From the NCBI GenBank assembly GCA_035273795.1, contig DATEOT010000052.1, positions 471-64,470 of the forward strand: a DNA stretch of 64,000 bases, written 5' to 3'. Of the stretch, positions 36,276-54,012 are shown in pieces (position 1 is the first letter of the stretch; every line of letters begins with the position of its first letter). The notes beneath the pieces are model-generated. The model did no database searches. It was given only the letters and a program-made list of their open reading frames with translations, and had not been told where the DNA came from. Source of the DNA: Solirubrobacterales bacterium. Its GTDB lineage: Bacteria > Actinomycetota > Thermoleophilia > Solirubrobacterales > 70-9. The position numbers and the translations under genes are program-made.

Positions 36276-37649
<1,374 letters not shown>

Positions 37650-37713: not shown

Positions 37714-38403
37714 GTGCCTTCCAGTCGACGCTCGGCAAAGTTGAACGAGCGGCTGCCCCGGGGAAGACACGGTTTGCCGAGGGAGGCGGTGACCGAATCC
37801 CAGCGCAACCGCATCCACCAGGCGATGATCGAGGTCGTCTCCAAACGCGGCTATCCGGAGACGCGCGTCGTCGACGTGATCGGGGCCGCCGGCGTCTCCC
37901 GCAAAACCTTCTACGAGCTCTTCGACAGCAAGGAGGACTGCTTCCTCGCGGCCTACGACGTGCTGCTCGAGAACCTGCTCGGAGAGGCGGTCGACGAGTT
38001 CGAGTCGCTGAGCGGGGCGCCTTGGGCCGAGCGGGTCTCCGCCGCGCTCGGCGCCCTGCTCGACCACCTCGCCGAGCACCCGAGCGAGGCCCGGTTCGCG
38101 ATCGTCGAGGTGCTGGCCGCGGGCCCGAAGGCCCTGGCACGTCGCGACGCCGCCCTGCGCCAGTTCACCGGCTTCCTCGAGGCCGGCCGCTCGGAGACGT
38201 CGGTCGAACTCCCGGGGATCACCTCGCTCGCTGTCGCGGGTGGAATCAACGAGCTGCTCTACAGCGAGATTCTCCACGGCGCGGCCGGCCGTCTCCCCGG
38301 TCGCCTCCCCGACCTGATGTTTTGGGTGACGCTGCCGTTCCTGGGGGCCGAGGGCGCTGCCGCCGAGCGCGAGCGGACCAGGCTCGCGAATCTTCGCTCG
38401 TAG
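37714..38403 (+). CDS. TetR-family transcriptional regulator
   Basis: HTH region GYPETRVVDVIGAAGVSRKTFYELFDSKEDCF. It belongs to the same subfamily as the TetRs at 50290, 62428 and 63193. Confidence 0.88.
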   Translation: MPSSRRSAKLNERLPRGRHGLPREAVTESQRNRIHQAMIEVVSKRGYPETRVVDVIGAAGVSRKTFYELFDSKEDCFLAAYDVLLENLLGEAVDEFESLSGAPWAERVSAALGALLDHLAEHPSEARFAIVEVLAAGPKALARRDAALRQFTGFLEAGRSETSVELPGITSLAVAGGINELLYSEILHGAAGRLPGRLPDLMFWVTLPFLGAEGAAAERERTRLANLRS

Positions 38404-38550
38404 AGGTTGGTCGAGCGCTCCTTTTGCCGCCCCCGCGGGTTTAGGAACAAGAGCGGGGTGGTAGTTTGACCCGCTGGAGAGACGTTCCAAGAAAGTTCTG
38501 ACGGCATCGGACCCGGAGACGGGCAGGCCGCAAAGGAGAGATATAGGGAT

Positions 38551-39300
38551 ATGCGCAAGTACCTGATGTTGACGACGGCCATTGCGGCCCTGATCGCCGT
38601 CAGCGTGGCGGGCATCGCCACCGGCGCCAAACCGGTGACGGTCGAAGCCGGCAACCTCGTCGTGACCGTCAACGGCGAATTCAAACCGGCGAAGCTGCCG
38701 AAGAACAAGCTGGCTCCGATCAAGCTCTTTGCCTCGGGCAAAATCGCGACCAAAGACGGCACCCATCCGCCGGCGTTGAAAGAAGTCATTCTCAAAACCG
38801 ACAAGAACGGCGCCATCAACGTCAAGGGTCTGCCCAAGTGCAAATCGGGCCAGCTGCAGTCCCGCGACACGAAAGCGGCTGAAAAAGCCTGCAAGAGCGC
38901 GATCATCGGCACCGGCCAGACCACGGTCGAGGTCGAATTCCCCGAACAGCGGCCGATCGACGTCAACAGTAAGTTGCTCGTCTTCAACGGCGGCTTCAGC
39001 GGCGGCACGACGACCCTCTTCATCCACGCCTACTTCTCGGCGCCGGTAACCGGGGCGATCGTCACCACCGTGAAAGTGAAGAAGAAGAAGGAGGGCCGCT
39101 ACGGCCTGAATTCGGTCGCGACGATCCCGAAAATCGCCGGCGGCAGCGGCTCTGTGAAGAGCTTCAACCTGGCGATCACCAAAAAGGGCGTCCTCACCGC
39201 CAAATGCCCTGACGGCAAGCTCCAGGCCCATGCAACCTCTGTCTTCGCCGACGGCACCAAAGCCGCTGCGACGATCATCAGGACCTGCACCGGAACCTGA
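38551..39300 (+). CDS. Secreted hypothetical protein with one Cys-pair module
   Basis: Good SD (aaggagag) and signal peptide MRKYLMLTTAIAALIAVSVAGIATGA. The segment LPKCKSGQLQ...ACKSAIIGTGQTTVEV resembles the module repeated in the 1028-aa protein at 41984..45070. Confidence 0.65.
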   Translation: MRKYLMLTTAIAALIAVSVAGIATGAKPVTVEAGNLVVTVNGEFKPAKLPKNKLAPIKLFASGKIATKDGTHPPALKEVILKTDKNGAINVKGLPKCKSGQLQSRDTKAAEKACKSAIIGTGQTTVEVEFPEQRPIDVNSKLLVFNGGFSGGTTTLFIHAYFSAPVTGAIVTTVKVKKKKEGRYGLNSVATIPKIAGGSGSVKSFNLAITKKGVLTAKCPDGKLQAHATSVFADGTKAAATIIRTCTGT

Positions 39301-39443
39301 GGAACGCATATCCAAAGCCTGTCCTCGGACAGGCAAGGTTCAGAAGGGCGGCCTCCGGGCCGCCCTTCTCTTTGGTCCCTGGTTGCGCTGGCGGCAACTC
39401 CGACCTACGAGTGAGCGCACTCGATTAAAGAGATCTGTCTAAA

Positions 39444-39881
39444 TTGGCAGCCATGTTCCCGGACGGCGACAGCTTGTCGACCGCGGTTGAAAGCGCGAAG
39501 GAACAAGACCTGACGCCTCTGGTCGAGGAGTGCGCGGAGGCTTTGGACCTCGAGCAGGAACAGCTGACGACGCTGGTGGCCTATCTTCACGATGCCTGGT
39601 TCTTCGGCATCCGCACCGGTCACGCGGTGATGGTCGAGACGAAGATGGGACAGGCGAATCCCGGACCAGCCATCCTCGGCGCGCAGGACGATTTCCAGGA
39701 TCTGATGGAACGCTGCGCTGACGCTCTCGACACCACCCTCGGCAGGACGATCGCCGCCTGGAACTACCTCGGCCGGGCTTGGATCGCCGGTGCCAGGTTT
39801 TGGGAGGTCGAGGTCGCCGCGCGCTTGATCGAAGAGAGCTCCGAAGGCTTCGCCGAGGTGCTCAGATGGCTCGAAGAGTAG
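39444..39881 (+). CDS. Hypothetical acidic cytoplasmic protein
   Basis: 145-aa helical-looking acidic ORF with no signal peptide, lying between two secreted-protein genes. Confidence 0.45.
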   Translation: MAAMFPDGDSLSTAVESAKEQDLTPLVEECAEALDLEQEQLTTLVAYLHDAWFFGIRTGHAVMVETKMGQANPGPAILGAQDDFQDLMERCADALDTTLGRTIAAWNYLGRAWIAGARFWEVEVAARLIEESSEGFAEVLRWLEE

Positions 39882-40073
39882 GGGCGTCGGGGTGTCCAAG
39901 GCGATCTGCGGAAGGACGCGTACCGCCGCCAGCGCCCGGTACCCCCATTGCTCGACACACGCTGTCCGAAACGAATTGCCCTGCCTCATTAGTTGACATC
40001 GCTCTTTTACCTCGATAGAACCTGTCCAACTGGTCGGGCTGGAGGGATCTGGCGCGCCAGTTTGGGAACATCC

Positions 40074-40901
40074 ATGACTATCAGGAAGGCGATGATGAAG
40101 CCTAGAAACCAGTTCAGGCTGCTGGCAGTTCTTGCAGCAGCCATCGCAGCGTTCGCTGCGGCAGCACCCACTGCCGGAGCCGCAACGCCCGCCCCGGGTT
40201 ACACGCAGTTCGCGGGTTGCCCGAGCCCGGCGGAAAATCCGAACATCACCTCGTGCCAGCGGACCATCATCACAAGCGGTTACATCAAGCTCGGCAACAA
40301 AAAAGTGCCGATCAACAAACCGCTGGTCCTCAGTGGGGGGACGGGAGTCGAAGGAGCGGGCTTCTCTTACAACTCCCAGGGCGGACTCTCCAAAACCCAA
40401 CTCCAGGTTCCGGGGGGCGTAATCGGGCTGACCGGCCTCGACTGGCTTGTCAATTTCCTCGACATCGACTCTCTGCAGCTGTTCTCGGAAGCTCAGCTTG
40501 CAGGGACGCCGTCGTTCAACGGCCCTGAAAACGTGACCCTGCCGCTCAAATTCCGGTTGATCAACCCGGTATTGGGCAGCAGCTGCTACATCGGATCGAA
40601 CACCAATCCGGTCGTGCTGAACCTGACCACCGGCACCTCCGGAAAACTCACCGGGAAATCGCCGGAATATGTGTTCCACCCGTCGACGATCATCCTTACA
40701 GGGCTGAATGGCACCTTCGTCGACAACACGTTCACGGCGCCCGGGGCAACCGGCTGCAAACTAACTCTGTTCGGTTTCATCCCGATCAGCCTCAACAGCG
40801 TCGTCAACTCCTCCTCGGGTTTGCCCGCAGGTCCGGGAGTCAACGAAGCGGTTCAGAACTACGACCTCGAAGTCGTCGAGTCGGCCTTGGTTTATCCGTA
40901 A
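40074..40901 (+). CDS. Secreted hypothetical Gly/Thr/Asn-rich beta protein
   Basis: The internal ATG at 40074 gives MTIRKAMMKPRNQFRLLAVLAAAIAAFAAAAPTAGA, a signal peptide. The 27-codon upstream extension was rejected. Confidence 0.65.
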   Translation: MTIRKAMMKPRNQFRLLAVLAAAIAAFAAAAPTAGAATPAPGYTQFAGCPSPAENPNITSCQRTIITSGYIKLGNKKVPINKPLVLSGGTGVEGAGFSYNSQGGLSKTQLQVPGGVIGLTGLDWLVNFLDIDSLQLFSEAQLAGTPSFNGPENVTLPLKFRLINPVLGSSCYIGSNTNPVVLNLTTGTSGKLTGKSPEYVFHPSTIILTGLNGTFVDNTFTAPGATGCKLTLFGFIPISLNSVVNSSSGLPAGPGVNEAVQNYDLEVVESALVYP

Positions 40902-41075
40902 GGCCTAACTCTCTCGACAAGCGAGGGTTTCACAGCCCGCGGCGGACACCCGCCGCGGGCTTTTCTTGGCCACCATGGGCAGCGAGGAGATGGGCTCCCA
41001 GTGTCCCCTTAGACGCCGGTCAGGCCTCTTCGGGCGAGGTGTCCCTCCCTCATTGACCCAACTATTGCCTCGACA

Positions 41076-41432
41076 GTGGCTGTGTCCCGGCAGGCGGTCC
41101 CTCCCTTGGGTACTGAGTCAGTTCGAAACGGTTGCCCCGCGCTACCGTTTGCGTTGGGATGGTTCCGAGCTTGCTGCTGGCTTCGTACTTGGAATAGTTG
41201 GTCCCTCGTCGCGGATGGCCTCCGGGCGGCCTGGAGTAGACGGTCTCCAGGGGGAAAGCTTCCTCTACATCCTCCGATCGGCGTTTCGCTGACCCCACGC
41301 CAAAAGCAGGTTCTTGACCTCCGGCGCTACGGCCATTCCGTCGAGGAAATCGCTGGCCTCCTGGACCTCTCGGTAGAGACCGTTGAGATGCACCAAATGT
41401 GCGCCCGCCGGCGACTCGACGCGGCCAGCTAG
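41076..41432 (+). CDS. Possible small HTH protein (sigma-70 region 4 / LuxR-type C-terminus), possibly a gene remnant
   Basis: Only the last 50 aa or so look genuine (LTPRQKQVLDLRRYGHSVEEIAGLLDLSVETVEMHQMCARRRL). The upstream part is W/C/R-rich and looks non-coding. No convincing start codon lies near the HTH. Confidence 0.3.
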   Translation: MAVSRQAVPPLGTESVRNGCPALPFALGWFRACCWLRTWNSWSLVADGLRAAWSRRSPGGKLPLHPPIGVSLTPRQKQVLDLRRYGHSVEEIAGLLDLSVETVEMHQMCARRRLDAAS

Positions 41433-41450
41433 TCCTGGCGGGCTTTTTTC
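41403..41450 (+). terminator. Putative intrinsic terminator after the HTH ORF
   Basis: gcccgcc ... ggcgggc stem followed by tttttt. Confidence 0.45.
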
Positions 41451-41929
41451 AAACTGACCCAGTGCCCTCCCTTGCTTGGCGACGCCTCGGCATCCAAATT
41501 CGGCTCGTCATGCCATGATCGCCGGAGGGCATCGTCCCCTCAACTGCAGGCAGCTGCAGGCGGAGCCTATGGGGCCTGTCCCAGAACTCCTGGGGACGGC
41601 AGAAGGTCATCCTCGGCTTCCAATCCCGGGTCCGTCCATACCTTGCCCGTCCAGGAGGAGGCCCTGCCCGGCCCCCGCCTACCGGGCGAAGACTCAGGAG
41701 AGCGCGATAGGGGGCGCTGAGTGGCCGGCTGAGGACAGCTGGCCCTCGGAGTCGTGGCTCACGCGCCCGTTACCGGTCCTTGCTCGTTGTGAACGAAGTC
41801 CTAGTGGCCGAACTGAAAGGGGCAGATACGCGTCCTCATCACATCCGTACTCACCCGGGCTGAGGAGCCTCGATCCAACTTCAGGCTCCCGAAGTCGCCC
41901 GCTCCGATCGAAACCGAGTTGCGAGCCCG

Positions 41930-41964
41930 GAAAGAGGGATCAATGCCCTCGGCTTGATCCCTCT
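41930..41964 (-). terminator. Putative terminator hairpin downstream of the 1028-aa gene
   Basis: 11-bp stem agagggatcaa / ttgatccctct about 20 nt beyond the stop codon at 41984. Only a weak U-tract follows (ctttcc). Confidence 0.4.
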
Positions 41965-41983
41965 CCGACTCGCCTCAGCTAGG

Positions 41984-44900
41984 TCAGCGTTTACCGCGTC
42001 GCTTACCGGGCTGGGCCTTCTTACAGTCGTTCCCGACAACTGGACGGAGGGTTACCCGGCGCCCATTGTGAGCGACAAAACGTGCATTCGCGCGCTGAGT
42101 TTTCCTGCACAGGTTTTCCGAGTTAACCAAAAGGCCCTTCTTCCCGCCCTTCATTTCGAGCACGAATCGGGATACCGGTGCATCGGGCACGAATTCGAAG
42201 GTAGAGCGCAGGCCCTTCTGTTTCGTGGTGTCGATGCGAGCGTGGACGAGGACACGTATCTGCCCTTTCAGTTCGGCCACGAGATCCGGCAGGGTGTGGC
42301 CGAACCCGACGCCTAGGTAAACCGGGCCCTCGAGCGGTTTGTCGAGCAGGGGGGACCATGCCTTGACGCGACCGTAGATGGAGCCGGGAGGACATTGCGC
42401 GGCGGCCAGCTGCGGACGGGTGCAAACGACGGCCCCAATGTGTCCCTGTTCCAGGAACATCGAGGGCGGGAGCCCGACCTGCGCCCGCGCGATGTTGGCG
42501 TACTTGCCTTTCTTGGGGTACGTCAACACTGCCTTCAGAGCCGGGAAGCGGTTCCGCTTGGTACCTCCCTTGAGCCCGATCTTCAACCGGGGTTGGAAGC
42601 CGAGGTTCTTGCACCCTCCCACCTGGAAGCGATTGACAAGCGCCGTGGTCTGTCCCAGCGTGGTGGTCAGGCTGCCTCCAACGCTCATCGCTTCGCAGTT
42701 GGTGGGGTTGACGGTGAACTGGGAGCGACTCATCTTCACCGCGATCGACCGGACGTCGAGCGGGATCCCTTTGAGCTCGGTGGGGATCGGGTCGCTCTTG
42801 ACGGTGATCTGGGCGGTGAAAGGGTCGACCTCGAGAGCCGAGCGCACGACGACGGTTCCGAGGTCATAAGGACCGGCCACGGCCGGGGTGATGATCGCCA
42901 AGCTGAGCGGAGCGCCCTTGTAGGGACCTGCCAGATAGGCACGGCCCTGAACGTAGTAGGGCGAGGGACCGGCGCCGGCGCCGACGTTGACGACGCCGAC
43001 TTCCGAGGCAGCAGGGCAACTGGCAGTGGCTTTCTCCGCGAGCCCGGTCTTGCCGGCGGCGGCGGTCAGCGCAGAGTCGGGGCAGTAGGGGATGCCGGCG
43101 AGCTTGCCGAGCAGACCGGGGGGCGGAGTGACGGTCAGCGAGGAGAACTGCTGGGAGCCGTCATTCCGCCTGAGGTTCAGCACGAAGGGGCTGAACGCAC
43201 CGGCAAGCGGGGACTCGGTTCCCGCTTCGAAGGCGGGGTTATTCGGTAGCTGATCGACTGAGGTGGGGCAGCTGCCTCCACCCGGCGCGGTGGAGATCTG
43301 GTAGTTGTCGGACGGCGTGGCAGGCGGACCCGATTCGGGGGCGGACCACGGCGTCAGGGTCGAGGTCGTGGTGTACGTGCCGCACACCGAGGGCGTCTTC
43401 AACGCTGCCCGGGGACCACCGAAGAAATCAAGCTTGAAGTCGTCGAAGGGCATCTGGGGGTTTTCCGAGAAGGTCGTGGTGAGCTGGCCTCCAGCCCCGA
43501 TCTCGACATGGCCCGCGAGCTTGATCACCACACCCGACTCCGGGTCGTTGACCGCTAGATAAATCGCCAGCAGGCTCTGGAACGGGTTGTCATAAGGGGT
43601 GGCGACGTAGATGCTCCCGGGCAGAGGGTGGTCGAGCAGCGGGGTGTCGACTTCCAGCGTGCCGATTTTGGCTGCGTCGGGACAGGCCGCCGGAGCGGCG
43701 GTGGTCCGGATCGGGGTAGTGCCGACCGGGGAGGTGAGACCGATCTGCGCGGGCGTGCAGCTCTCCAGACCGGCAGCCGAGGAAGGATTGAGGGTGAGGC
43801 CGGCCGGCAACTTCACGACCGCGTCTTTCAGGTCGGGCGTCGCGGGTTCGTTCGGAACTTCGTTCTGGGGGACGTGGAGGTCGACGTGGAGGCCCGTGGG
43901 GGAATCGGAGGTCGTGTTGGTCGGCTGCAGCTGCAGAGTCGGCTCGAACTCGAGCTGGTCGCAGCCGGTGATCGCCGGCATCGAGAACTCCCGGCTGAAG
44001 ACCGCTCCTGGCAGGTTGTAGCTGCTGACGTTGATGCGGGCCGCCAGGGGACCGCCGCAACTGGTCGGGTTGCGGAGAAACGGGGTTTCAGGGGTTCCCG
44101 GAGTCACAGAACACGGGCTTTCCCGTTCATCGTTCCCCAAGTAGCAGGACCGCAGTGCGTCATGACGTGGGTCCGCCGGCACTCCCCACAGCCGGATTTC
44201 GAAGGCATAGGGATTCGAGATGGTCGGGAGATTGAAGCTGCCGGCGTTGATCCCGTAGTCCGCCCCGGTTCGCACACTGGCCGAGATGTATGCGTTCGTG
44301 GATACATTGACCTCCCCGGCGAATCGAGCGGGGCTGCCTTTGGCGGGAGTCACGTTGTAGATGTTGGAGCTGTGCTGACTCGGGCCCGCAGACTGGACTT
44401 TGAGAAAACCTATCTGACTGTTCCCGGAGCATTTTCCTTCTTCGGCCAGGCGGACGGGACAGGCTTCGACCGCAGTCGGATTCCCGACCAAGCCGGGGGG
44501 AAGTTCGGCCACTATGTCCTTTGCCAGCGCAGCCGCGCCGACCGCTCCCAATACTTCGCCATGAGGCAGGGTGATGCGGGTGACTAGTTCGTAGGGGTGA
44601 GAGCCAGCGGTGCTGTCGGTGGTGCTGTCGTCTTTGATCGCTTCGAAGGTGAAGGCTTCGACACCGAAGGTATGGAAGGTGCCGCCGGATCCTTGAACTG
44701 CTCCCGCCGTCGTGGTTGCGACGAACCGGTAGCGGTACTCGGTGTCGCTGTCGAGCCCGGAAAGCTCAGCGGCCACCCGCTGCGCGGGGTCCGCCCCGGC
44801 GATCACCTCGGGAGAGCAGGGCGCGGTTTCAGCTCCCGCCCATTCGCTCACGGCGAACGCCGCTGCGGTCGTGTATTCGACCTCGCAAGAGGTCTCTTCC

Positions 44901-45070
44901 CCTTGCGGGTCGACGTGGGCTTCAAGGTCGGCTCCGAAGATGTAGGGCTGAGCTGCTTCTTCCTGTATTTGAGCTGCATTGGCCCCGGCTGCCGTCGAGA
45001 GCATGGCGACAAAAGCCAGCGCGAAGACCGTCAGAAGGGCCCGCATCCAGGCGGGTCTCGAGATCGCCAT
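41984..45070 (-). CDS. Large secreted protein (1028 aa) with an FN3-like N-terminal domain and four copies of a Cys-pair module
   Basis: The start at MAISRPAWMRALLTVFALAFVAMLSTAAGANA (45070) overlaps the upstream stop (TGATG). The module LPxGL...C...C(P)..S.IG...PL.G.vY is repeated. The tail is basic (CKKAQPGKRRGKR). I recognise no enzymatic motif. Confidence 0.8.
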   Translation of the reverse strand: MAISRPAWMRALLTVFALAFVAMLSTAAGANAAQIQEEAAQPYIFGADLEAHVDPQGEETSCEVEYTTAAAFAVSEWAGAETAPCSPEVIAGADPAQRVAAELSGLDSDTEYRYRFVATTTAGAVQGSGGTFHTFGVEAFTFEAIKDDSTTDSTAGSHPYELVTRITLPHGEVLGAVGAAALAKDIVAELPPGLVGNPTAVEACPVRLAEEGKCSGNSQIGFLKVQSAGPSQHSSNIYNVTPAKGSPARFAGEVNVSTNAYISASVRTGADYGINAGSFNLPTISNPYAFEIRLWGVPADPRHDALRSCYLGNDERESPCSVTPGTPETPFLRNPTSCGGPLAARINVSSYNLPGAVFSREFSMPAITGCDQLEFEPTLQLQPTNTTSDSPTGLHVDLHVPQNEVPNEPATPDLKDAVVKLPAGLTLNPSSAAGLESCTPAQIGLTSPVGTTPIRTTAAPAACPDAAKIGTLEVDTPLLDHPLPGSIYVATPYDNPFQSLLAIYLAVNDPESGVVIKLAGHVEIGAGGQLTTTFSENPQMPFDDFKLDFFGGPRAALKTPSVCGTYTTTSTLTPWSAPESGPPATPSDNYQISTAPGGGSCPTSVDQLPNNPAFEAGTESPLAGAFSPFVLNLRRNDGSQQFSSLTVTPPPGLLGKLAGIPYCPDSALTAAAGKTGLAEKATASCPAASEVGVVNVGAGAGPSPYYVQGRAYLAGPYKGAPLSLAIITPAVAGPYDLGTVVVRSALEVDPFTAQITVKSDPIPTELKGIPLDVRSIAVKMSRSQFTVNPTNCEAMSVGGSLTTTLGQTTALVNRFQVGGCKNLGFQPRLKIGLKGGTKRNRFPALKAVLTYPKKGKYANIARAQVGLPPSMFLEQGHIGAVVCTRPQLAAAQCPPGSIYGRVKAWSPLLDKPLEGPVYLGVGFGHTLPDLVAELKGQIRVLVHARIDTTKQKGLRSTFEFVPDAPVSRFVLEMKGGKKGLLVNSENLCRKTQRANARFVAHNGRRVTLRPVVGNDCKKAQPGKRRGKR

Positions 45071-47373
45071 CAGTTCTTCCTCCCAGTCTGGCGCTGCATT
45101 CGGGCATCCTGCACTTTGCCGCGTTTGCCGCATTTCGTCTTCCCCTTGGCGGCAGACCGGCGACCGCAGGCCTTACCGGCCCGTTTTTTGACGCAACGAT
45201 TTCCGCGGCGGACCTGGTTGCGTTTGCAGGCCTTCGGGCGCACATTGCCGGGGCCGGCGAAGGTGGCGGTGGACGGCGGTGCGCCGGACGGTGGCGCCGG
45301 ACCCGGAGGTCGACAGGCTTCGCCAACGCACGGAACAGGAAGCGGTGGTTCGGCAAAGCCGCCCCCCACTCGCGCATCGTAGATGCTCGGCAGGCCATCG
45401 GTGTCGGAGCGGACGAGCGCCTCAGAGGTGACGAAGAAGACATCGCCTCCGTCTGCGCTGGCGTCGACGAAGGCCGACCCGCCTATGGCGGTACCGCTGG
45501 AGATCAGGCTGAGGCTGCCGGAGCGGTACTCGTACACGTCTTGGAAGCCGTTTACATCTCGCGAAGACAGTGGGTTCACGGTTTCGAAGAAGACCTGCCC
45601 ACTATCGTGAACTGCCCGCGGCATGTAGCGAGGTCCCGGCGAGAAGCGTTGGAACTCCTGTCTCTCGACCAACCGCGTGTTCCCCGCCGGACCGCCTCCG
45701 CCGGGAACGCAGGAAACGCAGGACAATTCGTCCGCGCCAGCATCGTAGAGATAAAGTGCCTCACAAGTTCCTCCACAGCCCGAATTGTCAAGACCGGCCA
45801 CGAGCGATTTGAAGGAAGAAAACAGCAGATACCTTCCGGAAGGGCTCCAAGCCGTCTTCAGGCGTCCACTCTCAGAGGAACGAACTCGGACGTATTCCCA
45901 CCAGTTACCCCAATCTTTCCCCCCCAGGGTCGTACTGCCCTCCCCGTTTTCCCAGAGGGAGAACGTAGTCACGTAGGTGAGTGCACCTTCGTGGGCCAGA
46001 TAGAGGTTAGGTTGCCCGGCCTGGGCAACTTCGCCTTGGCTGTTCTGCTGGGACCCGGTGAGAGCGCCCCGGGCCACGAAGTAGATTTGGGAGCCGTCAT
46101 CGGAGCCGCCGCTGATGCCGCGCACGTTCGCCGTTTCGCCGGAAGCCACGGTGAGGTTGACCAACTGTTTAGCACTGACATCGTATTCGTACAGATCAGG
46201 CCTACCAGCCTGAGCGCTGGCGGGGAAGGTAAGGGCGTGGTCGCTGATGAAGAACACCTTGTCGCCATCGCGAGAGGCGAACTGGAAAACGCCACCCCCA
46301 CTGGCCCCGGCGCCTTTCGAGAGGTCGATCTGACGCGTGCAGGCGAGACCGGGTTCACTCGCCTGGCAGTTGGCGGTAGCCGCCGGGGCCTGGCCGGCAT
46401 TTTCCCGGAGGTAAAGGTTCCCATTGGCTTCGAAGAAGACCCGTTCACCGTCAGCCGATACGGCGTGGCTGACCGGAGCCAATCCCTGGACAACACCGCC
46501 TTCGGTGCCCCAGTCCTTGGTGCCCGCGCTCAGCTTTGCGGCGACCGGGTCACCATTTGGAAGTACCCCGATCAGGCGAACAACCCCATCGGCCCACAAG
46601 AACAGGTTGGAGGTGGGCGTTGATTCCGGAGTCAGTTCCGCTTCCTCGCTGAAGACGATGCGACTGAGGTCAGAGGAGGCGGCTTGATAAGTCGCGTTCC
46701 CTGGACTCACCCCGGCAGGAACAGGGTTCGCTAAGGAAAAGGGTCCTTCTCCCTGCCGGAGGTAGAGGTTCGAGTAGCCCCGCGGTTCTCCCGGCACCAA
46801 TTCCTCTTCTGGCGTCCCACATTCACCTTCTGGGTCGTCGGGGTCCAACAAATAAAGTTCCCCCCCACCGGAAAGCACGTACGAGCTGAGATCTTCCGAG
46901 AAGGCCACCCCCGGTTGACACAAGGCCACGAGGGTGGGGGCCGGAGTGAACTGTGGGTCGAGACTTTTTACGGTCCACCCGCTCGCAGTGCGTCTGGTGA
47001 GCCAGGTTTCGCTGCTCGTCAGAGATCCTTTGGCCGGATAACGGCTGAAATAAGAGAGAGCATCCCCGTCGGGAGAGGCCTTGCCGCCGCCGAATTCAAT
47101 TCGGCTGTCTTTCGTAAGTGACGGGCTGCTACCGGGGCTGGCGAGCTCATAGGCGCGGCAGTCGGGCAGGGCGAGAGCGGCGGGACCCTGTTCCGCTCGG
47201 ATCGCTTCGTTGGCGCAAGTCGCCGCGGCCCGCGCGGACGGCGCCAGGAAGAGAGCGGCGCACGAGACACAAAGCGCGATCAGCAACGCCCTTGCGGACC
47301 AGGCCCTGACGGAGTCCTGGATGTCGACGTGGCCGCCGAGCGACGTTCCTATGGATCGATTTTCTGCTCGCAT
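45070..47373 (-). CDS. Secreted PD40/TolB-like beta-propeller repeat protein (767 aa) with Cys/Lys/Arg-rich C-terminal tail
   Basis: The start at MRAENRS (47373) has SD aggagag. It has a signal/TM segment ALLIALCVSCAALFLAPSARA. Recurrent SxDGxxvxF repeats are present (SPDGDALSYFS, SADGERVFFE, SRDGDKVFFI, SDDGSQIYFV, SPSGRYLLFS, ADGGDVFFVT). Confidence 0.8.
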   Translation of the reverse strand: MRAENRSIGTSLGGHVDIQDSVRAWSARALLIALCVSCAALFLAPSARAAATCANEAIRAEQGPAALALPDCRAYELASPGSSPSLTKDSRIEFGGGKASPDGDALSYFSRYPAKGSLTSSETWLTRRTASGWTVKSLDPQFTPAPTLVALCQPGVAFSEDLSSYVLSGGGELYLLDPDDPEGECGTPEEELVPGEPRGYSNLYLRQGEGPFSLANPVPAGVSPGNATYQAASSDLSRIVFSEEAELTPESTPTSNLFLWADGVVRLIGVLPNGDPVAAKLSAGTKDWGTEGGVVQGLAPVSHAVSADGERVFFEANGNLYLRENAGQAPAATANCQASEPGLACTRQIDLSKGAGASGGGVFQFASRDGDKVFFISDHALTFPASAQAGRPDLYEYDVSAKQLVNLTVASGETANVRGISGGSDDGSQIYFVARGALTGSQQNSQGEVAQAGQPNLYLAHEGALTYVTTFSLWENGEGSTTLGGKDWGNWWEYVRVRSSESGRLKTAWSPSGRYLLFSSFKSLVAGLDNSGCGGTCEALYLYDAGADELSCVSCVPGGGGPAGNTRLVERQEFQRFSPGPRYMPRAVHDSGQVFFETVNPLSSRDVNGFQDVYEYRSGSLSLISSGTAIGGSAFVDASADGGDVFFVTSEALVRSDTDGLPSIYDARVGGGFAEPPLPVPCVGEACRPPGPAPPSGAPPSTATFAGPGNVRPKACKRNQVRRGNRCVKKRAGKACGRRSAAKGKTKCGKRGKVQDARMQRQTGRKN

Positions 47374-47503
47374 TGCTCTCTCCTGACGCTTCCCTTGCTG
47401 GTCCGGCGACTGTTTGTGAATACCCATGGTCCGCTACAGCGGAGGGTAACTACTGCTCCCGCACCGCTGAAGAACTTCAGCGGGCGAGAGCAGTAGCGGT
47501 CAA

Positions 47504-48286
47504 TTACTCCGCAGCCTCAGCGGGCATCACTGCCCAAGAGCCGAAGCTCGCGCCTTTGGTTTTGTCGAAGTACACGATCGCCCCGAACTGCTGAGGCAGG
47601 GGTACTTTGACTTCCGGTTCCCCATTGATCAGGTACAGGCAGAGGACGCCGGGAGTCGCTTTCGGTTCAAAGCCGCCTCCGGGACATTTCAGTTCCTCTT
47701 CCTCGGTGTGATCGGAGGGATCGAAGAAGACGACCTCCGCGGGCGCGGTTTCCAGCGGGAGCGGGAAGGAGATCGTGGTGACCGAGAATTCGCCAAGCGT
47801 GAAGCCCGATTCTGCTTGGTTTTCCCAGAGGCCGGTCGCGGTCCGACCCTCAGGAAGGAACTCTGGGTAGCTCCCCTCGCTGCCGCCGCTGCACGCAAAC
47901 CCCTCGCCGGTCCCATTGATGAATTTGGAGCCGCCCCCGGGGCAGTTGGTGTCGCCGGGGTCAAGCGGGATGATGGTTACATCTTCACCGTCGGTGCCGT
48001 TGGTTCCGTTGGTTCCGTCGGTGCCATCTTCGCCGTCTGCACCCGGCGCGCCATTTGCGCCGGCGGCTCCGGTGTCCCCCTTCGCCCCGGGGGGGCCGTT
48101 CTGGCCGGCCGGTCCCTGGGCGCCGTCCTTGCCGGCGAATTTCTTGGCGATTTTCTTGACTTCCTTCTTCTGCTTGCCGGTCAGGCCATTGGCGGCGTAT
48201 GCGCCACCGACCAAGGCGGCGACCAAGGCGACAACGGCCACGATCAGGCCAGCTTTGCCGAAGGGCTCGCGGATTCTATGAAACAT
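47504..48286 (-). CDS. Membrane-anchored collagen-like (Gly-X-Y repeat) protein with C-terminal globular domain
   Basis: N-terminal TM helix GLIVAVVALVAALVGGAYA, a Lys-rich spacer, and 17 uninterrupted GXY triplets (GKDGAQGPAGQNGPPGAKGDTGAAGANGAPGADGEDGTDGTNGTNGTDGED). A Cys-containing domain of about 155 aa follows. SD aaggagag. Confidence 0.85.
   Translation of the reverse strand: MFHRIREPFGKAGLIVAVVALVAALVGGAYAANGLTGKQKKEVKKIAKKFAGKDGAQGPAGQNGPPGAKGDTGAAGANGAPGADGEDGTDGTNGTNGTDGEDVTIIPLDPGDTNCPGGGSKFINGTGEGFACSGGSEGSYPEFLPEGRTATGLWENQAESGFTLGEFSVTTISFPLPLETAPAEVVFFDPSDHTEEEELKCPGGGFEPKATPGVLCLYLINGEPEVKVPLPQQFGAIVYFDKTKGASFGSWAVMPAEAAE
47981..48133 (-). repeat. Coding Gly-X-Y triplet repeat (17 units) within the collagen-like gene
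   Basis: Every third codon is GGN across 51 codons. Confidence 0.9.
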
Positions 48287-48607
48287 AGCTAGACGTCTCT
48301 CCTTTGTGTAGTACCTGCCGGCATCCCAACCGGCGGAATCGACTCGACCTGCTCGATAGAACCAGCGCCGGTGGGCGGCGCGCTCGCCAATCGGCGGTTA
48401 TCGCCTGCCGGGCTCCCGCTGTAGTCGCTGCCATCCGGTGACTCCCCCGCCTTCACATCCCAAGCCAAAGGCATTGCTAGTTCCCTGTTGCGACGTCCCA
48501 TACGCCGCATTGCCTAGTGAAGTTAGACAGAAACCTCTTCCGCTGTCAAGGGTACTCGAGCGGTGGCCGAGGATCTCCTTTCTTCCTTGGCTCGGGCCCC
48601 GACCGCA

Positions 48608-48643
48608 GAGAAAAAGAAAGGCGGGCGCCATGTGGCGCCCGCC
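48608..48643 (-). terminator. Rho-independent terminator after paralog 1
   Basis: On the minus strand, a GC-rich stem ggcgggcgcca/tggcgcccgcc is followed by tttctttttct. Confidence 0.7.
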
Positions 48644-48669
48644 TCTCGAGGCATCAGCTGCCCGATGGA

Positions 48670-49245
48670 TCAAGGATGGAAGGAAAGGGTTCCTCCGCCT
48701 ACGCGTGTGACTGTGCTGTCCCCTGTGTAGGTCCCGTTGTTGCCGGCAGCGCCGCAGAGGCCGCCCGTCGATGTATAAGCGATGGTTTTCACGTGAGGTG
48801 TAACGCGCATATGGCCGTTAGCCTCGGTGATGAAGGTGACCGTGCCAACTGTCTGCGGATGGACGGTCTGCGAGCAGCCGGCCCCTGTCACGGTGATCAC
48901 AATGGATTTCTCGATGTGAACCAGCCCGTTAGCTGTAAAGTTGTAGAAAGCGGGCGTGATGTGCACGGTGGCGAAGCCGAAAGCCGTGCAGCCGCTGTAT
49001 TTGACTTCTACTGTCTGTTCTTCGGACGCGACGCTTTTGATTTCGCCCGTCGTAGCAGCGGCGGTGCATTTGACCTGGCCGCCGGAGGTCGTGAAGACCT
49101 GGACTCCTTCGGCACCAGCAACGACTGAACCGGTCAGCGAACCGGTCGCGCTGGCTGTGAACTGAGCTGCTGAGGCGTTGGCGGCGCCGATCGCGCAGAG
49201 CGCGAAAACGGCGACGAGCACGCCGAGCTTCTTCATGTTACGCAT
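48670..49245 (-). CDS. Small secreted protein, paralog 1 (191 aa)
   Basis: SD aaggagaaacgcaat-ATG, signal peptide MRNMKKLGVLVAVFALCAIGAANASA, and 4 conserved Cys. It is about 80% identical to the next gene. Confidence 0.78.
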   Translation of the reverse strand: MRNMKKLGVLVAVFALCAIGAANASAAQFTASATGSLTGSVVAGAEGVQVFTTSGGQVKCTAAATTGEIKSVASEEQTVEVKYSGCTAFGFATVHITPAFYNFTANGLVHIEKSIVITVTGAGCSQTVHPQTVGTVTFITEANGHMRVTPHVKTIAYTSTGGLCGAAGNNGTYTGDSTVTRVGGGTLSFHP

Positions 49246-49530
49246 ATTGCGTTTCTCCTTGATTGCTAGTCATGTCTGTCTTCCGGCCCGGCGTCCTTTC
49301 CCAACGGAGCCCGGGTAGAAGAGATCGAGTCACTCGGTGGCTCGATCCCGGCAAGCTTCCCTGATCACTCAGGACTTGTCAAGTACCTAGGGGGTCATTG
49401 ACCCGTTTCAAGCCACAGACCGGCTTGTTCCCGGGGCGGGACACTGGGTTAGATCTCCGGGGCAAATGCCTGCAGATGGGCAATGTGGAGTCCTCGGACT
49501 TCATGGGTGGGTCCCGCGGATCGATCCGGC

Positions 49531-49565
49531 GCAAAAAAAGGGCGGGCGCCACGTGGCGCCCGCCC
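49531..49565 (-). terminator. Rho-independent terminator after paralog 2
   Basis: On the minus strand, a stem gggcgggcgcca/tggcgcccgccc is followed by tttttttgc. It is a near copy of the terminator at 48608..48643. Confidence 0.7.
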
Positions 49566-49590
49566 AGTAGGCATCAGCTGCCCGAATGGA

Positions 49591-50148
49591 TCAGTCGAAG
49601 GCGAGAGATCCTCCGCCGACCCTTTCAACTTCGTTGGTGCCGGTGTAGGTACCGTTGGCGCCGCCGGCGCCGCAGAGACCGCCGGTCGAGGTGTAGGTGA
49701 TCCCACTGACGTTCGGGGTCACTTTCACTTTGGTGCCGTTGGTAGCAAAGCTAACCGTGCCAACTGTCTGCGGAGCGACGCTCTGCGAGCAGCCGGCCCC
49801 TGTCACGGTGATCGTGATGGTTTTCTCGATGTGAACCTGTCCGCTAGCTGTAAAGTTGTAGAAAGCGGGCGTGATGTGCACGGTGGCGAAGCCGAAAGCC
49901 GTGCAGCTGCTGTATTTGACTTCTACTGTCTGTTCTTCGGACGCGACGCTTTTGATTTCGCCCGAGGTAGCAGCGGCGGTGCATTTGACCTGGCCGCCGT
50001 TGGTCGTGAAGACCTGGGTAGCCGTGGCTTTACCGGTCAGCGAACCGGTCGCGCTGGCTGTGAACTGAGCTGCTGAGGCGTTGGCGGCGCCGATCGCGCA
50101 GAGCGCGAAAACGGCGACGAGCACGCCGAGCTTCTTCATGCTACGCAT
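49591..50148 (-). CDS. Small secreted protein, paralog 2 (185 aa)
   Basis: It has the same SD, signal peptide and first 130 aa or so as paralog 1. The C-terminal third has diverged. Confidence 0.78.
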   Translation of the reverse strand: MRSMKKLGVLVAVFALCAIGAANASAAQFTASATGSLTGKATATQVFTTNGGQVKCTAAATSGEIKSVASEEQTVEVKYSSCTAFGFATVHITPAFYNFTASGQVHIEKTITITVTGAGCSQSVAPQTVGTVSFATNGTKVKVTPNVSGITYTSTGGLCGAGGANGTYTGTNEVERVGGGSLAFD

Positions 50149-50289
50149 ATTGCGTTTCTCCTTGATCGCTAGTCATTTGTCTCCAACCCGGCGCCCTTCC
50201 CGACAGGCGTCCGAGTCGGCGAGGTCGAGTCCCCTTTGGTCACTCGATCCGGCGCAAGCTTGTCATTTGGTCAGGAGAATACGTAGTAC

Positions 50290-51735
50290 TTAAACATTTC
50301 GTTTTTTAATTCGCTCCTGCCCGCCGCGGCTGGCCGTAATCGCGCGTAGCGCTGCCGGGGAACCGACGGCGGGGGCGAGCGCCAGAAACGCGAGAAGAGG
50401 GAGGAGGGAGGCCGTCGCCGCCGAGCTCTGCTCCGATGCCCGCCGGCGCAAGATGGCCCAGGCCGCAGCGGTCGATGCCTCTGCAGCGAGCTCAGATGGT
50501 TCGCGGCCCACGGGGGCCGTGGCTTGCAGGGCCCGGGCGATCCGAGCGATCTGGCGCTCACGGCTGTCGATGCCCGCTGTTCCTGCCGCCGATACTTCGA
50601 CGAGGAGCACCCGCGCGCTGTCGACGTCGGCTTCGATCGCATCGCAGAGTTCCTCAAGCGCCTCGCAGACAGCGGTGCTCCAGGGCGCCGACGGAGTCCG
50701 CCTGCGCAGCGAAGCCTCCACGGCGCTGGCCACACGCTCCTCCAGAGCCGCGGAGAAGCAGTCCTCGAGTCCCTCGAAATGGCGGTTGAAGCTTCGCCGC
50801 GAGACACCTGCCTCCCGGCAGATCATGGGAATCGACAGCTGGTGATATCCGGTGCACTGTGCGATCCGGAACGCGGCGGCGAGGATCATCACCCGCTCGT
50901 CGCCGAGGGTCCCCTGCCAATTGCCGTCGCGCAGTCGGCGCGCCGCGGTCGAGCCGTCCCGACGGCCGGGCGGGACTGGGGCGACCAGAAGCTCCGCCCC
51001 CTGCGCCGATGGGAAGCTGAGGCTCATGATCCACTCCGCGGCTTCAGCTGCGATTTCTCCGATCTCCGCCTCCGTGGCCGCCGGCAACCAGAGCCGCCCG
51101 ATCCTGGCCAGACCGGCCACGACTCCTTCGAGCAGGTGCGGCGGCAGATGGGGACCGCCGCCGGTGCGGAGGCAGAACTCCAGGGCAAGGCCGATCCGCA
51201 TCGCGGAGTTCCGAAGCCTGCTGGTGAAAGCCGGGCCGGCGGCCGGCGCCCCCCGGAGCATGAAGGTCGCTGCCTGCCGATTTGCGGCCATGTCCCGAAA
51301 GAGGCAGCCGATGGCCAGGGCGAGGCGCCGCCGCGGGTCAGGCTCCTCCTGGCCAGCTTGCAGCAAGCGCTCAGAAGTGCTCCGGCAGATCAGATCGAAG
51401 GTGGAGAGGAGGCAGTCGTCGGTGCTCCGATAGTGGTTGTAGAAGGTGCCGCTGGAGACCCGCGCCCGCTTCGTGAGACCTCGGACGGTGACAGCCTCAT
51501 AGCCATGAGTGGCGACGAGCTCGACCATCGCCCGCTGCAGACGCGATCGCTGATGAGCCGCCACCTTCTCCCTGCTGAGGCCCGGGCCGGGCCGGAGCCG
51601 CCGGTAGTCCCACGGTGAAGTCGAGGACTCTGTGGCGCGGGGGCAGCTCTCCACGGCAGCCTGTCTCTCCCGGGGCGCTTCTCCGGGTACCGTCAAGCGT
51701 CCCTCCTTACTCGCGGTCATCGGATCTGGGTTCAC
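50290..51735 (-). CDS. Tandem-domain (double) TetR-family regulator
   Basis: One 481-aa chain carries two complete TetR HTH regions: GYEAVTVRGLTKRARVSSGTFYNHYRSTDDC and GYHQLSIPMICREAGVSRRSFNRHFEGLEDC. Each is followed by a helical ligand-domain-like segment. The exact start is uncertain. Confidence 0.78.
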   Translation of the reverse strand: MNPDPMTASKEGRLTVPGEAPRERQAAVESCPRATESSTSPWDYRRLRPGPGLSREKVAAHQRSRLQRAMVELVATHGYEAVTVRGLTKRARVSSGTFYNHYRSTDDCLLSTFDLICRSTSERLLQAGQEEPDPRRRLALAIGCLFRDMAANRQAATFMLRGAPAAGPAFTSRLRNSAMRIGLALEFCLRTGGGPHLPPHLLEGVVAGLARIGRLWLPAATEAEIGEIAAEAAEWIMSLSFPSAQGAELLVAPVPPGRRDGSTAARRLRDGNWQGTLGDERVMILAAAFRIAQCTGYHQLSIPMICREAGVSRRSFNRHFEGLEDCFSAALEERVASAVEASLRRRTPSAPWSTAVCEALEELCDAIEADVDSARVLLVEVSAAGTAGIDSRERQIARIARALQATAPVGREPSELAAEASTAAAWAILRRRASEQSSAATASLLPLLAFLALAPAVGSPAALRAITASRGGQERIKKRNV

Positions 51736-51818
51736 CCCGGTCAGTGGTGCCCAGCAGCTCCAATTGAGTAACTATCTTCTACTGCTCAACGATATATGAT
51801 CGCCGAGGTGAAGCAGCT

Positions 51819-52409
51819 TTGAAGGTGACCCTTGTAACGCTGGGCCCGACGGGGACGTGCCATGAGCGTGCCGTCAGGCGGTACATGGACTTCCAGGGCG
51901 TCGAGGACTTCGAAATCGAGTTCATCTCGGACTTCTTTGACGGCCTCGAACTGATCCGGGGGCGCGAGGACGCCTTCCTGATCCAGTGCAGCGCGCATCC
52001 CAAGGTGCACGAGGTGACGGAGCGTTACTGGTCGGAGGTATTCGTGGTCGACACGTTCATCTACCCGACCAAGGCCCTGGCTGTGCTGACCCGCCGCGAG
52101 GTTGAGCGGCCTCGCTCGCTGGGCCTGGTTCCAGCGACCGCCGGATACATCGACCGAAGCGATTGGGAGGAGATCATCGACGTGGTCTCCAAGCCGGTCG
52201 TGGCCCAAGAGCTGCTCGAAGGAAGATACGACTCGGGGCTGACCCACGCCGAGCATCTGCACCTGCACCCGGAGGAGCTCCGCCTCGATCTCGAGATCGG
52301 CGAAATCGACACCACCTGGGTGGTCTACGGGACGAAGAAGCGATTCGACGGCGAGGTGATCGGCATCCCCTCCCGTGAGCTTTTCGACCGGTCGTCAGAC
52401 CGACCCTGA
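51819..52409 (+). CDS. Prephenate dehydratase-fold (PDT/PBP2-like) protein without ACT domain, possibly BacA-like prephenate decarboxylase
   Basis: The N-terminal TLGPTGTCHERAV resembles the (Y/T)LGPxGT(F/S)S motif of PDT domains. It is 196 aa, has no regulatory domain, and ends in TTWVVYG. The family assignment is tentative. Confidence 0.45.
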   Translation: MKVTLVTLGPTGTCHERAVRRYMDFQGVEDFEIEFISDFFDGLELIRGREDAFLIQCSAHPKVHEVTERYWSEVFVVDTFIYPTKALAVLTRREVERPRSLGLVPATAGYIDRSDWEEIIDVVSKPVVAQELLEGRYDSGLTHAEHLHLHPEELRLDLEIGEIDTTWVVYGTKKRFDGEVIGIPSRELFDRSSDRP

Positions 52410-52414
52410 GAGAC

Positions 52415-52894
52415 CTACGGCCGCCCGCAGATCTCGAGGCCGAGTTTTTCCGCCTGCCGTTCCACCGGAGTGAACGGCTCGATTTTCGCTTCGGAGAACT
52501 CGACCGGCTCTGCCTCGATTTCGTCGAGGGCTTTTTCGAGAGCATCGATGAAGGCTTCGGCTTTCTCCTCTTCTCCAGCGGGGGCGCCCAGTTCCTCCAG
52601 GGATGCGGCCGCTTCCCTCAGCGGCGGGACGCCGGCGTTGACGACGAAGTCCGCCTGGTCGGATTTAGAGGGTGAGCCCGTCACGTCTTGCGCTGCTTTC
52701 TGGAGAAGGGCTTCCTGCCGATCGTTCGCCTTCGTGCAGATCGCGTCAGCTTGTTTGACCCACTCAGCCTTGCTCAGGGCCTCCTGCTCCCCACCTGAGG
52801 TCTCGGAGTCGTCGGAGCCTCCGCAGCCCGCGATCGCCATGGCGACGAGACAAAGGGACAAAACTGCGGCGAGAACTCCTCGATTGATCAGCAT
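52415..52894 (-). CDS. Hypothetical lipoprotein
   Basis: Lipobox AIAGCGGSDD after a hydrophobic signal, followed by an acidic helical mature part. Confidence 0.6.
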   Translation of the reverse strand: MLINRGVLAAVLSLCLVAMAIAGCGGSDDSETSGGEQEALSKAEWVKQADAICTKANDRQEALLQKAAQDVTGSPSKSDQADFVVNAGVPPLREAAASLEELGAPAGEEEKAEAFIDALEKALDEIEAEPVEFSEAKIEPFTPVERQAEKLGLEICGRP

Positions 52895-52952
52895 TAATCA
52901 ATGGTATCTAAGCAGACGACACGATGCGTTCATCCCAGCGGGAGGGTGCAGG

Positions 52953-53729: not shown

Positions 53730-53772
53730 CTCTCTCCCTCACTGCGCCGATTGCACAGGAAAGCTTAAAAGA

Positions 53773-54012
53773 TCAAGCGTTGTGCTGCCTCTCCTCGCGC
53801 CGGTGCCTGCGCACCAGGGGTGCAACGTAGCCGATCAAAGCGCCGATACCGGCGGCGAGGAGGATGATGACGATCAGCGGCGCCTGGAAGCTGGCGGTGA
53901 GGAGCTCGAAGCTGACCTCCTGAGAGTTCTGCAGGGCAACGATCAGGACGAGGGCGCTGAGGATGCCGACGAGCCAGGCGCGCCAGTTGACGGGCTTCTT
54001 CTCCGCTTGCAT
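53773..54012 (-). CDS. Small two-TM membrane protein (LapA/DUF1049-like)
   Basis: 79 aa, two hydrophobic helices and a basic C-terminus RRHRREERQ. Confidence 0.5.
   Translation of the reverse strand: MQAEKKPVNWRAWLVGILSALVLIVALQNSQEVSFELLTASFQAPLIVIILLAAGIGALIGYVAPLVRRHRREERQHNA

Follow-up and report, generated by a model that had tools for sequence, protein, structure and literature searches.

What is built by the secreted proteins that a Solirubrobacterales genome encodes between a TetR gene and a double-TetR gene? The window analysed, the whole 64,000-nucleotide stretch of contig DATEOT010000052.1, contains at 38404-50289 a cassette that an initial annotation, made from the letters alone, had described as an island of lower guanine-plus-cytosine (GC) content encoding mostly secreted proteins, and had likened to fibre, sheath or S-layer loci. 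The window proteins are identical to VJU14_05570 to VJU14_05605 (HKO37819-HKO37826) of a Solirubrobacterales metagenome-assembled genome (MAG), each of which carries the name "hypothetical protein" only. Our analysis identifies a translationally coupled gene pair, encoding the beta-propeller protein p767 and the 1028-aa protein p1028, as the conserved core of the system, and we tentatively propose a regulated binding complex at the cell surface as the most likely product of the cassette.

The coupled p767-p1028 pair

The cassette and its two core genes are located as follows.

38404-50289: secreted-protein cassette of Solirubrobacterales, with a TetR gene at the left border and a double-TetR gene at the right
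45070-47373, minus strand: p767, exported PD40-type beta-propeller protein (Pfam PD40); its stop codon overlaps the p1028 start
41984-45070, minus strand: p1028, exported 1028-aa protein; open reading frame (ORF) with an fn3-like N-terminal domain, four modules and a polybasic C-terminal tail

The stop codon of p767 and the start codon of p1028 overlap by 1 nt as cTGATGg behind the Shine-Dalgarno (SD)-type sequence GGGAGGAAG, which bears out the translational coupling of the propeller and giant-protein genes assumed in the initial annotation. Family hidden Markov models (HMMs) were run against all ORFs of 84 loci, in which 95 p1028-family ORFs had enough upstream DNA to be scored; a p767-family ORF directly precedes the p1028-family ORF on the same strand in 87 of the 95, and the stop and start codons overlap by 4 nt in 72 of these pairs and by 1 nt in 6 (78 in total). 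At locus L014 (7040-13411) a single reading frame of 2123 aa contains both a p767-family propeller and a p1028-family protein, connected in-frame by an Arg/Lys-rich linker of ~120 residues, which is either a natural fusion or possibly a sequencing error. Because of this pairing, the overlapping codons and the one fusion, p767-p1028 is regarded as the conserved core of the system, and the two proteins are very probably co-translated in fixed proportion.

The p1028 family is large, with more than 2393 homologues. A scan of one genome per GTDB species gave at least 561 confirmed p1028 relatives, and the best 80 of these, which were inspected, come from MAGs labelled Solirubrobacterales, Conexibacteraceae, Thermoleophilia, or more broadly Actinomycetes or Actinomycetota; every retrieved locus is from uncultured bacteria. 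One genome has five ~14-kb blocks with at least ten p1028-family genes between them. Contig CAVUMC010000002.1 (2.68 Mb) carries five dispersed copies (L052, L053, L055, L058 and L059) of one ~14-kb block with the order long p767, p1028, p767, p1028, p249. Identity among these copies is 82-93%, falling to 53-71% for the long N-terminal propeller protein, the N-terminal region of which has diverged most.

The AlphaFold2 (AF2) model of p1028 is all-beta with only short helices, at a predicted local distance difference test (pLDDT) score of 75, and its Foldseek matches include the macroglobulin (MG) domains of C3, CD109 and alpha-2-macroglobulin, the Ig-like domains of PrgB, the C123 region of SspB, adhesin extender repeats and integrin legs. 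Given the all-beta model and these matches, p1028 is taken to be a chain of Ig-like sandwiches. Profile comparison resolves four tandem modules of ~225 aa each, modules 2 and 4 being the clearest pair (hhalign 97.9%, E 5e-13) and modules 1-3 and 2-3 matching more weakly; the protein contains 20 Cys, at positions that do not vary in the alignment of the family. A C.EQ scan showed that the CxEQ thioester motif is absent. For p767, the PD40 match scores 23.7 bits against a Pfam cut-off of 20.9, and 37 of 45 family members match PD40, the best at 4.9e-9. The protein has 18 Cys and the family shares the N-terminal motif CxNExxR...LPDCRAYE. Sequence profile searches of the PDB with the three main families returned nothing significant, the single match listed for the A1 family having an E-value of 0.26.

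Both families show a polarity along their length. Distant p1028 relatives align only from about residue 135 on, long p767 relatives bear extra NHL-like and fn3-like domains at the N-terminus, and among the five block copies the long N-terminal propeller protein is the least conserved; together these observations point to variable N-termini combined with conserved C-termini and tails. These tails are basic: among their last 30 residues, p767-family proteins have a median of 16 Lys, Arg and His and p1028-family proteins a median of 10, whereas the median of other ORFs is 5. The tail of p767 itself is strongly polybasic and contains Cys, and many tails are His-rich.

Companion genes and their upstream elements

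The remaining features of the cassette, from left to right, are listed below; the promoter-like sites come from cross-genome alignment, and a sigma-70 promoter scan found none.

37714-38403, plus strand: TetR1, TetR-family regulator of 229 aa (TetR_N 8e-9), left border
38551-39300, plus strand: p249, exported basic 249-aa protein with 4 Cys and a signal-like N-terminus; no family match
39453-39881, plus strand: p142, acidic 142-aa protein without export signal (27 D+E versus 9 K+R)
40092-40901, plus strand: p269, exported 269-aa protein with a signal-like N-terminus; 275 aa from the alternative start at 40074
40934-40961, plus strand: intrinsic terminator after p269, 12-bp stem and T-run
41076-41432, plus strand: possible small GerE/LuxR-type helix-turn-helix (HTH) ORF or remnant (GerE 7e-9, last 48 residues only)
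47504-48286, minus strand: p260, collagen-like protein of 260 aa (Pfam Collagen 2e-9)
48287-48552, minus strand: 5' leader with promoter-like TTGACA (48544-48549), 18 nt, TAACTT (48520-48525), from cross-genome alignment
48616-48647, minus strand: intrinsic terminator after p191, 14-bp stem with 11 GC pairs, then a T-run
48670-49245, minus strand: p191, small exported p185-family paralogue (family HMM 1e-83)
49322-49348, minus strand: dyad GGATCGAGCCAC-cga-GTGACTCGATCT upstream of p191, candidate operator or leader hairpin
49540-49565, minus strand: intrinsic terminator after p185, perfect 13-nt arms, then a T-run
49591-50148, minus strand: p185, small exported protein with a ~160-aa mature all-beta domain and 4 invariant Cys
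50223-50250, minus strand: second, imperfect copy of this dyad, upstream of p185
50290-51735, minus strand: TetR2, double-TetR regulator (TetR_N 3e-23, two separate HTH stretches)

Much of the initial annotation holds. The genes for p249, p269, p1028, p767, p260, p191 and p185 were all found where it had placed them, and these seven of the nine island genes encode Sec-type N-termini, as it had said, by a heuristic criterion (a 12-residue Kyte-Doolittle mean of at least 2.6 with Lys or Arg before the segment); by the same heuristic p142 and the LuxR-like ORF have no hydrophobic N-terminal export signal. An independent ENA assembly of the same sequence (L001) has gene calls that agree with these genes and adds one 142-aa gene between the first two plus-strand genes. 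The explicit SD sites and intrinsic terminators are real (AAGGAGA SD sequences, and hairpins with T-runs after p185, p191 and p269), and the flanking TetR and double-TetR assignments were recovered by Pfam, with two TetR_N domains in TetR2. The proteins do belong to uncharacterised families: the only Pfam and NCBIfam matches among the island proteins are PD40 (p767), Collagen (p260), TetR_N and GerE, so that, regulators apart, one PD40 repeat and the collagen tract are the only curated matches. In agreement with the earlier reading, Pfam and NCBIfam recognise no enzyme, transporter, sortase or pilin peptidase among the island genes.

Further searches were likewise negative. Pfam found no prepilin peptidase, secretion ATPase, SLH domain or CWB2 domain in the island genes, and sortases are missing also from the Pfam-annotated neighbourhoods of L001, L003, L004 and L085. 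None of eight island proteins has a PADLOC match, an LPXTG-like motif or a C-terminal transmembrane-like segment (the last two by regular-expression and hydropathy scan), and the prepilin cleavage motif G|F(T/S)L(I/V)E does not occur in the first 60 residues of any island protein. PHROGs gave no match for the island proteins outside the p260 collagen tract, and no island segment reaches the gathering score of any Rfam family.

The gene set and order described for this locus recur in related genomes, and in this respect the locus withstands the refutation test that the initial annotation had set. In four closely related genomes, whose p1028 proteins are 64-75% identical, a double-TetR gene, two to four p185-family genes, a collagen-like gene, a p767-family gene and a p1028-family gene follow each other on one strand. 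The double TetR holds this position, co-directional with the small-paralogue genes and directly upstream of them, in the present locus, and the same position in L003, L004, L006 and L008. On these gene-content comparisons, the small paralogs, p260, p249, p269 and the TetR genes are recurrent yet optional companions of the core pair.

The small paralogs p185 and p191 are 79% identical, and both genes are preceded by the SD sequence AAGGAGA. The AF2 model of p185 (pLDDT 90) is compact with 13 beta-strands, and its four Cys probably form two disulfides. A Foldseek search of PDB and BFVD with this model returned nothing at E <=1e-3, the best template modelling score (TM-score) being 0.39, to assorted beta-barrels. 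The mature N-terminus xFTASxTG and the four Cys are nearly invariant. The family comprises 3360 clusters at 50% identity, and some relatives contain 2-4 tandem domains; a Pfam search of longer p185-domain proteins for fusion partners gave sub-threshold noise only. Members were detected in 16 of the 84 loci carrying the core pair, a lower bound, as the HMM was built from close relatives. Many diverged p185 paralogues exist within the same MAG. On another of its contigs (k141_626007, L002) four p185-family genes are scattered among genes for an Na/Ca exchanger, an HD protein, an AMP-binding protein, an adenylate cyclase and M23 peptidases, with no propeller/p1028 pair nearby.

The collagen-like p260 contains 17 uninterrupted GXY triplets at residues 52-102 and scores 37.5 bits against the Pfam Collagen (PF01391) cut-off of 27.2. 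A conserved N-terminal anchor (IREPFGKAGLIVAVVAL..GGAYAA) is followed by a basic segment, the GXY run and a Cys-containing C-terminal domain of ~158 aa, and the same architecture, with the conserved anchor, occurs upstream of the propeller gene in about ten distinct loci. PHROGs tail-fibre families match the GXY tract only, as does the PDB profile search with p260; for the C-terminal domain neither this search nor profile-profile comparison found a known relative. Profile-profile comparison also gave no link among p185, p269 and the collagen-like C-terminal domain, or from any of these to p249 or the p1028 modules.

The minus strand is read as three units, p185, p191 and p260-p767-p1028, on the basis of the terminators, the promoter-like sites and the leader, in keeping with the graded set of genes described in the initial annotation. 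The leader of the third unit is ~230 nt long, and in five genomes its TTGACA is invariant and is followed 18 nt on by TAnnnT; we infer the transcription start of the p260 operon from this sequence pattern. Two leader hairpins are conserved in the five genomes. One, GCCTT...AAGGC at 48449-48472, differs by a single compensatory change from GCCTC...GAGGC in the relatives; the other, GCCGG...CCGGC at 48317-48334, lies directly ahead of GGTACTACACAAAGGAG. The leader may be a regulatory leader RNA. The upstream regions of p185-family genes in five genomes share the elements CTTGA-N5-CTTGA and GCTTGC, a GATCGA/TCGATC dyad and the SD sequence. GATCGA is invariant in 8 upstream regions from the 5 genomes, with its TCGATC partner ~12 nt away, and the dyad upstream of p191 is the single pattern match in the window, against 0.12 expected. 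Binding of the TetR proteins to these dyads or elements is conjecture.

On the plus strand, p249 homologues occur in ~30 of the 84 loci, mostly behind the last p1028-family gene. By profile, the p249 family weakly resembles module 3 of p1028 (hhalign 29%, E 6e-4, 133 columns), and p249 may be a free single copy of a p1028 module. Its 90%-identity cluster has 20 members, two of which apparently lie on contigs whose p1028 homologue is 58-60% identical; since the cluster thus spans contigs with diverged p1028, p249 is perhaps far more conserved than the core pair. In L085 a 249-aa gene stands beside a 142-aa gene, and a TetR gene adjoins these p249 and p142 homologues and purA. Homologues of p142 are few, this one and two in L020, and PHROGs and PADLOC gave no match for it; the protein contains an internal duplication, CAEALDLEQEQL...AWFFGIRTGHAVMVE and CADALDTTLGRT...AWIAGARFWEVEVAA. 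Pfam and NCBIfam gave no match for p269, homologues of which lie downstream of p1028-family genes in 6 of the 84 loci. The start of the GerE-type ORF at 41076-41432 is uncertain, its upstream part looks non-coding, no gene is called there on the ENA contig and tblastn found no homologue in the 84 loci; it is either a stand-alone GerE-sized regulator with a later start or the remnant of a LuxR-family gene.

Function and origin of the cassette

The Ig-like model of p1028, the PD40 propeller, the anchored collagen-like p260 and the polybasic tails all fit a cell-surface character of the cassette, and we tentatively favour a regulated surface binding complex. In this proposal, the p767 propeller and the elongated p1028 chain would be translated in a coupled manner from one mRNA, exported by the Sec pathway and probably form a complex. 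Since LPXTG motifs and C-terminal membrane helices are lacking, both proteins would be held at the envelope by their poly-Lys/Arg/His tails, through binding to anionic polymers of the wall or membrane. Facing outward, and setting the binding target, would be the variable N-terminal domains, which are fn3-like here and include NHL-like propellers and additional fn3-like domains in paralogues. The p260 protein would form a trimeric stalk, anchored in the membrane by its N-terminus and carrying a globular head, and p185 and p191, separately transcribed and terminated, would be beta-domain proteins that are abundant and either secreted or associated with the wall. Repression by TetR1 and the double TetR2 would last until a small-molecule ligand is present, perhaps through the GATCGA dyads at the small-paralogue genes. 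A broader proposal, more doubtful, is that Solirubrobacterales possess a surface apparatus of this type, consisting of obligately coupled propeller/Ig-array proteins tethered by polybasic tails without sortase, in many TetR-gated paralogous cassettes per genome, for variable recognition of environmental ligands or surfaces, with the p185 domain as a new extracellular fold family. No description of these families exists, and their pairing combined with polybasic tails is out of the ordinary; in kind, the locus would belong with the Gram-positive surface-protein loci, and uncultured lineages commonly encode exported multidomain proteins whose function is unknown.

Several observations weigh against a surface binding complex. 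The global TM-scores of the p1028 Foldseek matches are low (0.08-0.15) and indicate the domain type only, no function. The polybasic tails could instead bind nucleic acid or, as many are His-rich, metals, or be removed after export, and the proposed physical interaction of p767 with p1028 draws on the coupling of the genes and a single fusion. The accessory genes are missing from the majority of cassettes and therefore may not belong to one machine. TetR-like genes occur in 43 of 80 loci, and double-TetR-like genes within 10 kb in 24 of 80, but these are raw counts and TetR genes are common in Actinomycetota. A full-text literature search returned no relevant paper and no characterised relative of these proteins.

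The fibre, sheath or S-layer model of the initial annotation, in which p185 and p191 are the polymerising major subunits and the other proteins serve as stalk, anchor or accessory components, is considered unlikely. The two small genes have the strongest SD sequence (AAGGAGA), promoter-like sites and strong terminators of their own, a layout suited to high, separate expression; the nearly invariant xFTASxTG mature N-terminus and four Cys of the family can also be read in its favour, as conserved N-terminal connectors occur in some fibre subunits, and S-layer proteins also contain arrays of Ig-like domains. Against this, p185-family genes are optional, being detected in 16 of the 84 core-pair loci (a lower bound), and singletons stand among unrelated genes in the same MAG. 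The p185 model is self-contained, with the N-terminal strand inside the all-beta domain, and matches no pilin, TasA or Ena-like protein, the 2-4 tandem copies per chain in some relatives are more typical of a modular domain, and the island encodes none of the SLH, CWB2, sortase or assembly ATPase functions sought by Pfam. Because p185 is optional, scattered and modelled as a closed domain, polymerisation explains the locus less well than a surface complex does. We think it quite improbable that the cassette captures a small or hydrophobic substrate outside the cell, with p185 proteins as lipocalin- or haemophore-like carriers, the propeller/Ig pair as receptor, the TetR proteins as sensors of the same ligand and the many paralogous cassettes serving different substrates. 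TetR regulators typically respond to small molecules, the genomes contain multiple diverged cassettes, often each with its own TetR genes, and such weak structural matches as p185 has are for the most part to beta-barrels that bind ligands or lie in membranes (YwiB, the HtaA haem domain, nitrobindin, FABP6 and OmpW); however, none of these matches is significant (no E <=1e-3, TM-score <=0.39), no transporter or catabolic enzyme is found in the cassette here or in the inspected relatives, and the putative carrier genes are, again, optional. Bacteriocin-like antagonism, with p185 and p191 as diversifying toxins and the acidic cytoplasmic p142 as immunity protein, would account for the many diverged paralogues in one MAG and for a small acidic protein without signal, but it is very improbable: p142 has few homologues and adjoins p249 rather than p185, Pfam, NCBIfam and PADLOC give no toxin or immunity family match, and the p185 family, far from hypervariable, is conserved in its Cys framework and N-terminus.

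A last alternative, to which we give almost no credence, concerns origin: the cassette might be a recently acquired genomic island or prophage remnant, its low GC and its collagen "tail-fibre" gene marking it as foreign. Both GC and GC at third codon positions (GC3) are indeed lower in the island. GC is 62.5% at 38404-50289, against 68.3% in the left 18 kb and 68.5% in the right 14 kb, so that the contrast of roughly 60% with 72% estimated by eye was right in direction and about twice too large; GC3 is 0.69-0.85 in island genes and ~0.86-0.95 in correctly framed flank genes, and GC at first codon positions (GC1) is 0.59 against 0.73. These differences, ~6 points in GC and ~0.15 in GC3, and the PHROG tail-fibre matches of the collagen tract are what speaks for import. 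Yet the PHROG matches are limited to the GXY repeat, the other seven proteins having no PHROG or PADLOC match, and no relatives of A1 and A2, two of the three main families, were found in IMG/VR, although the A1 scan, being that of a signal-peptide pattern, is weak. No integrase and no tRNA lies at the borders, the sole tRNA being at 14276. The flanks argue in the same direction. On the left (34051-37649) are genes for DnaB, an IstB/DnaC-like ATPase and adenylosuccinate synthetase (purA), and on the right those for a methyltransferase, LapA and groES; the same flanking genes surround the cassette in L004 and a rearranged cassette in L085, despite p1028 identities of only 64% and 58%. In L004 dnaB, the IstB/DnaC-like ATPase gene and purA lie beside rplI, ssb and rpsF, which places the cassette near a conserved housekeeping cluster. 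In 49 of 67 related loci, too, the GC content of the core genes is slightly below that of their flanks; together with the synteny this suggests that low GC travels with the gene family and gives no sign of recent import. A foreign island or prophage remnant is thus largely refuted by synteny and the absence of viral relatives from IMG/VR. Judged by gene order, the cassette is chromosomal and vertically inherited, and known so far only from Solirubrobacterales as sampled.

Relation to known systems and neighbouring features

Among known proteins, p1028 invites comparison with the Ig-array adhesins of Gram-positive bacteria (PrgB, the C-domains of antigen I/II SspB and the extender repeats of large adhesins), which are among its best Foldseek matches. 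Like them it is a Sec-exported, elongated chain of beta-sandwiches, with a variable N-terminal and a conserved C-terminal end; unlike them it matches no sequence family, lacks both an LPXTG motif and a C-terminal membrane helix, has no sortase gene beside it in the island, terminates in a polybasic tail and has a propeller gene as its obligate partner. The best E-values in Foldseek (1e-10 to 1e-7) belong to the tandem MG-like sandwiches of the alpha-2-macroglobulin/complement C3 family, including E. coli ECAM, at a global TM-score of ~0.09. Membership of p1028 in this thioester/macroglobulin family was rejected, as p1028 lacks the C.EQ motif, a helical thioester domain and an A2M Pfam match. 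Integrin alpha chains, which also appear among the p1028 matches, likewise combine a propeller with a leg of Ig-like domains, here split over two coupled genes and fused in L014; the propeller is of the PD40 and not the FG-GAP type, there is no detectable homology, and the likeness is an analogy only. Relatives of p767 match PD40 blades as TolB-type propellers do, but p767 differs from TolB in having no Tol-Pal context, a distinctive Cys-containing N-terminal motif, a polybasic tail and no PDB sequence profile match. As in Scl1/Scl2 of Streptococcus and BclA of Bacillus, an exported GXY tract stands beside a globular domain in p260, which differs from Scl1/Scl2 in being anchored by a conserved N-terminal hydrophobic segment instead of LPXTG and in having a C-terminal domain without known relative. 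Assignment of p260 as an Scl1/Scl2/Lcl equivalog was rejected, with scores of 27-32 bits against NCBIfam cut-offs of 325-500; the Scl scores, ~31 bits against 325-400, come from the repeat only.

Solirubrobacterales, which are abundant in soil, and other Thermoleophilia are known mostly from MAGs, and a full-text literature search found nothing on the cell envelope of either group. The present analysis indicates that Solirubrobacterales devote much coding capacity to a few exported families that are unnamed in curated databases. The coupled propeller/Ig-array pair and the p185 domain, with more than 3000 sequence clusters, are worth defining as families, which would provide thousands of "hypothetical proteins" with names and testable hypotheses and could shed light on attachment and environmental sensing in these bacteria; the polybasic tail is a possible sortase-independent anchor.

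The intergenic DNA of the island is 62% GC and unusually long. The minus-strand gaps measure 345 and 383 bp, and the maximum of about 550 bp given in the initial annotation is correct (552 bp, beside p1028) if the LuxR-like ORF is a gene; otherwise that gap is 1082 bp. A second stretch of lower GC (62-64%), beyond the double TetR and outside the borders drawn for the island, extends over ~51600-53800, and contains the following.

51819-52409, plus strand: 196-aa ORF without family match
52415-52861, minus strand: acidic 148-aa putative lipoprotein with the lipobox ...AIAGC
52953-53729, minus strand: SAM methyltransferase

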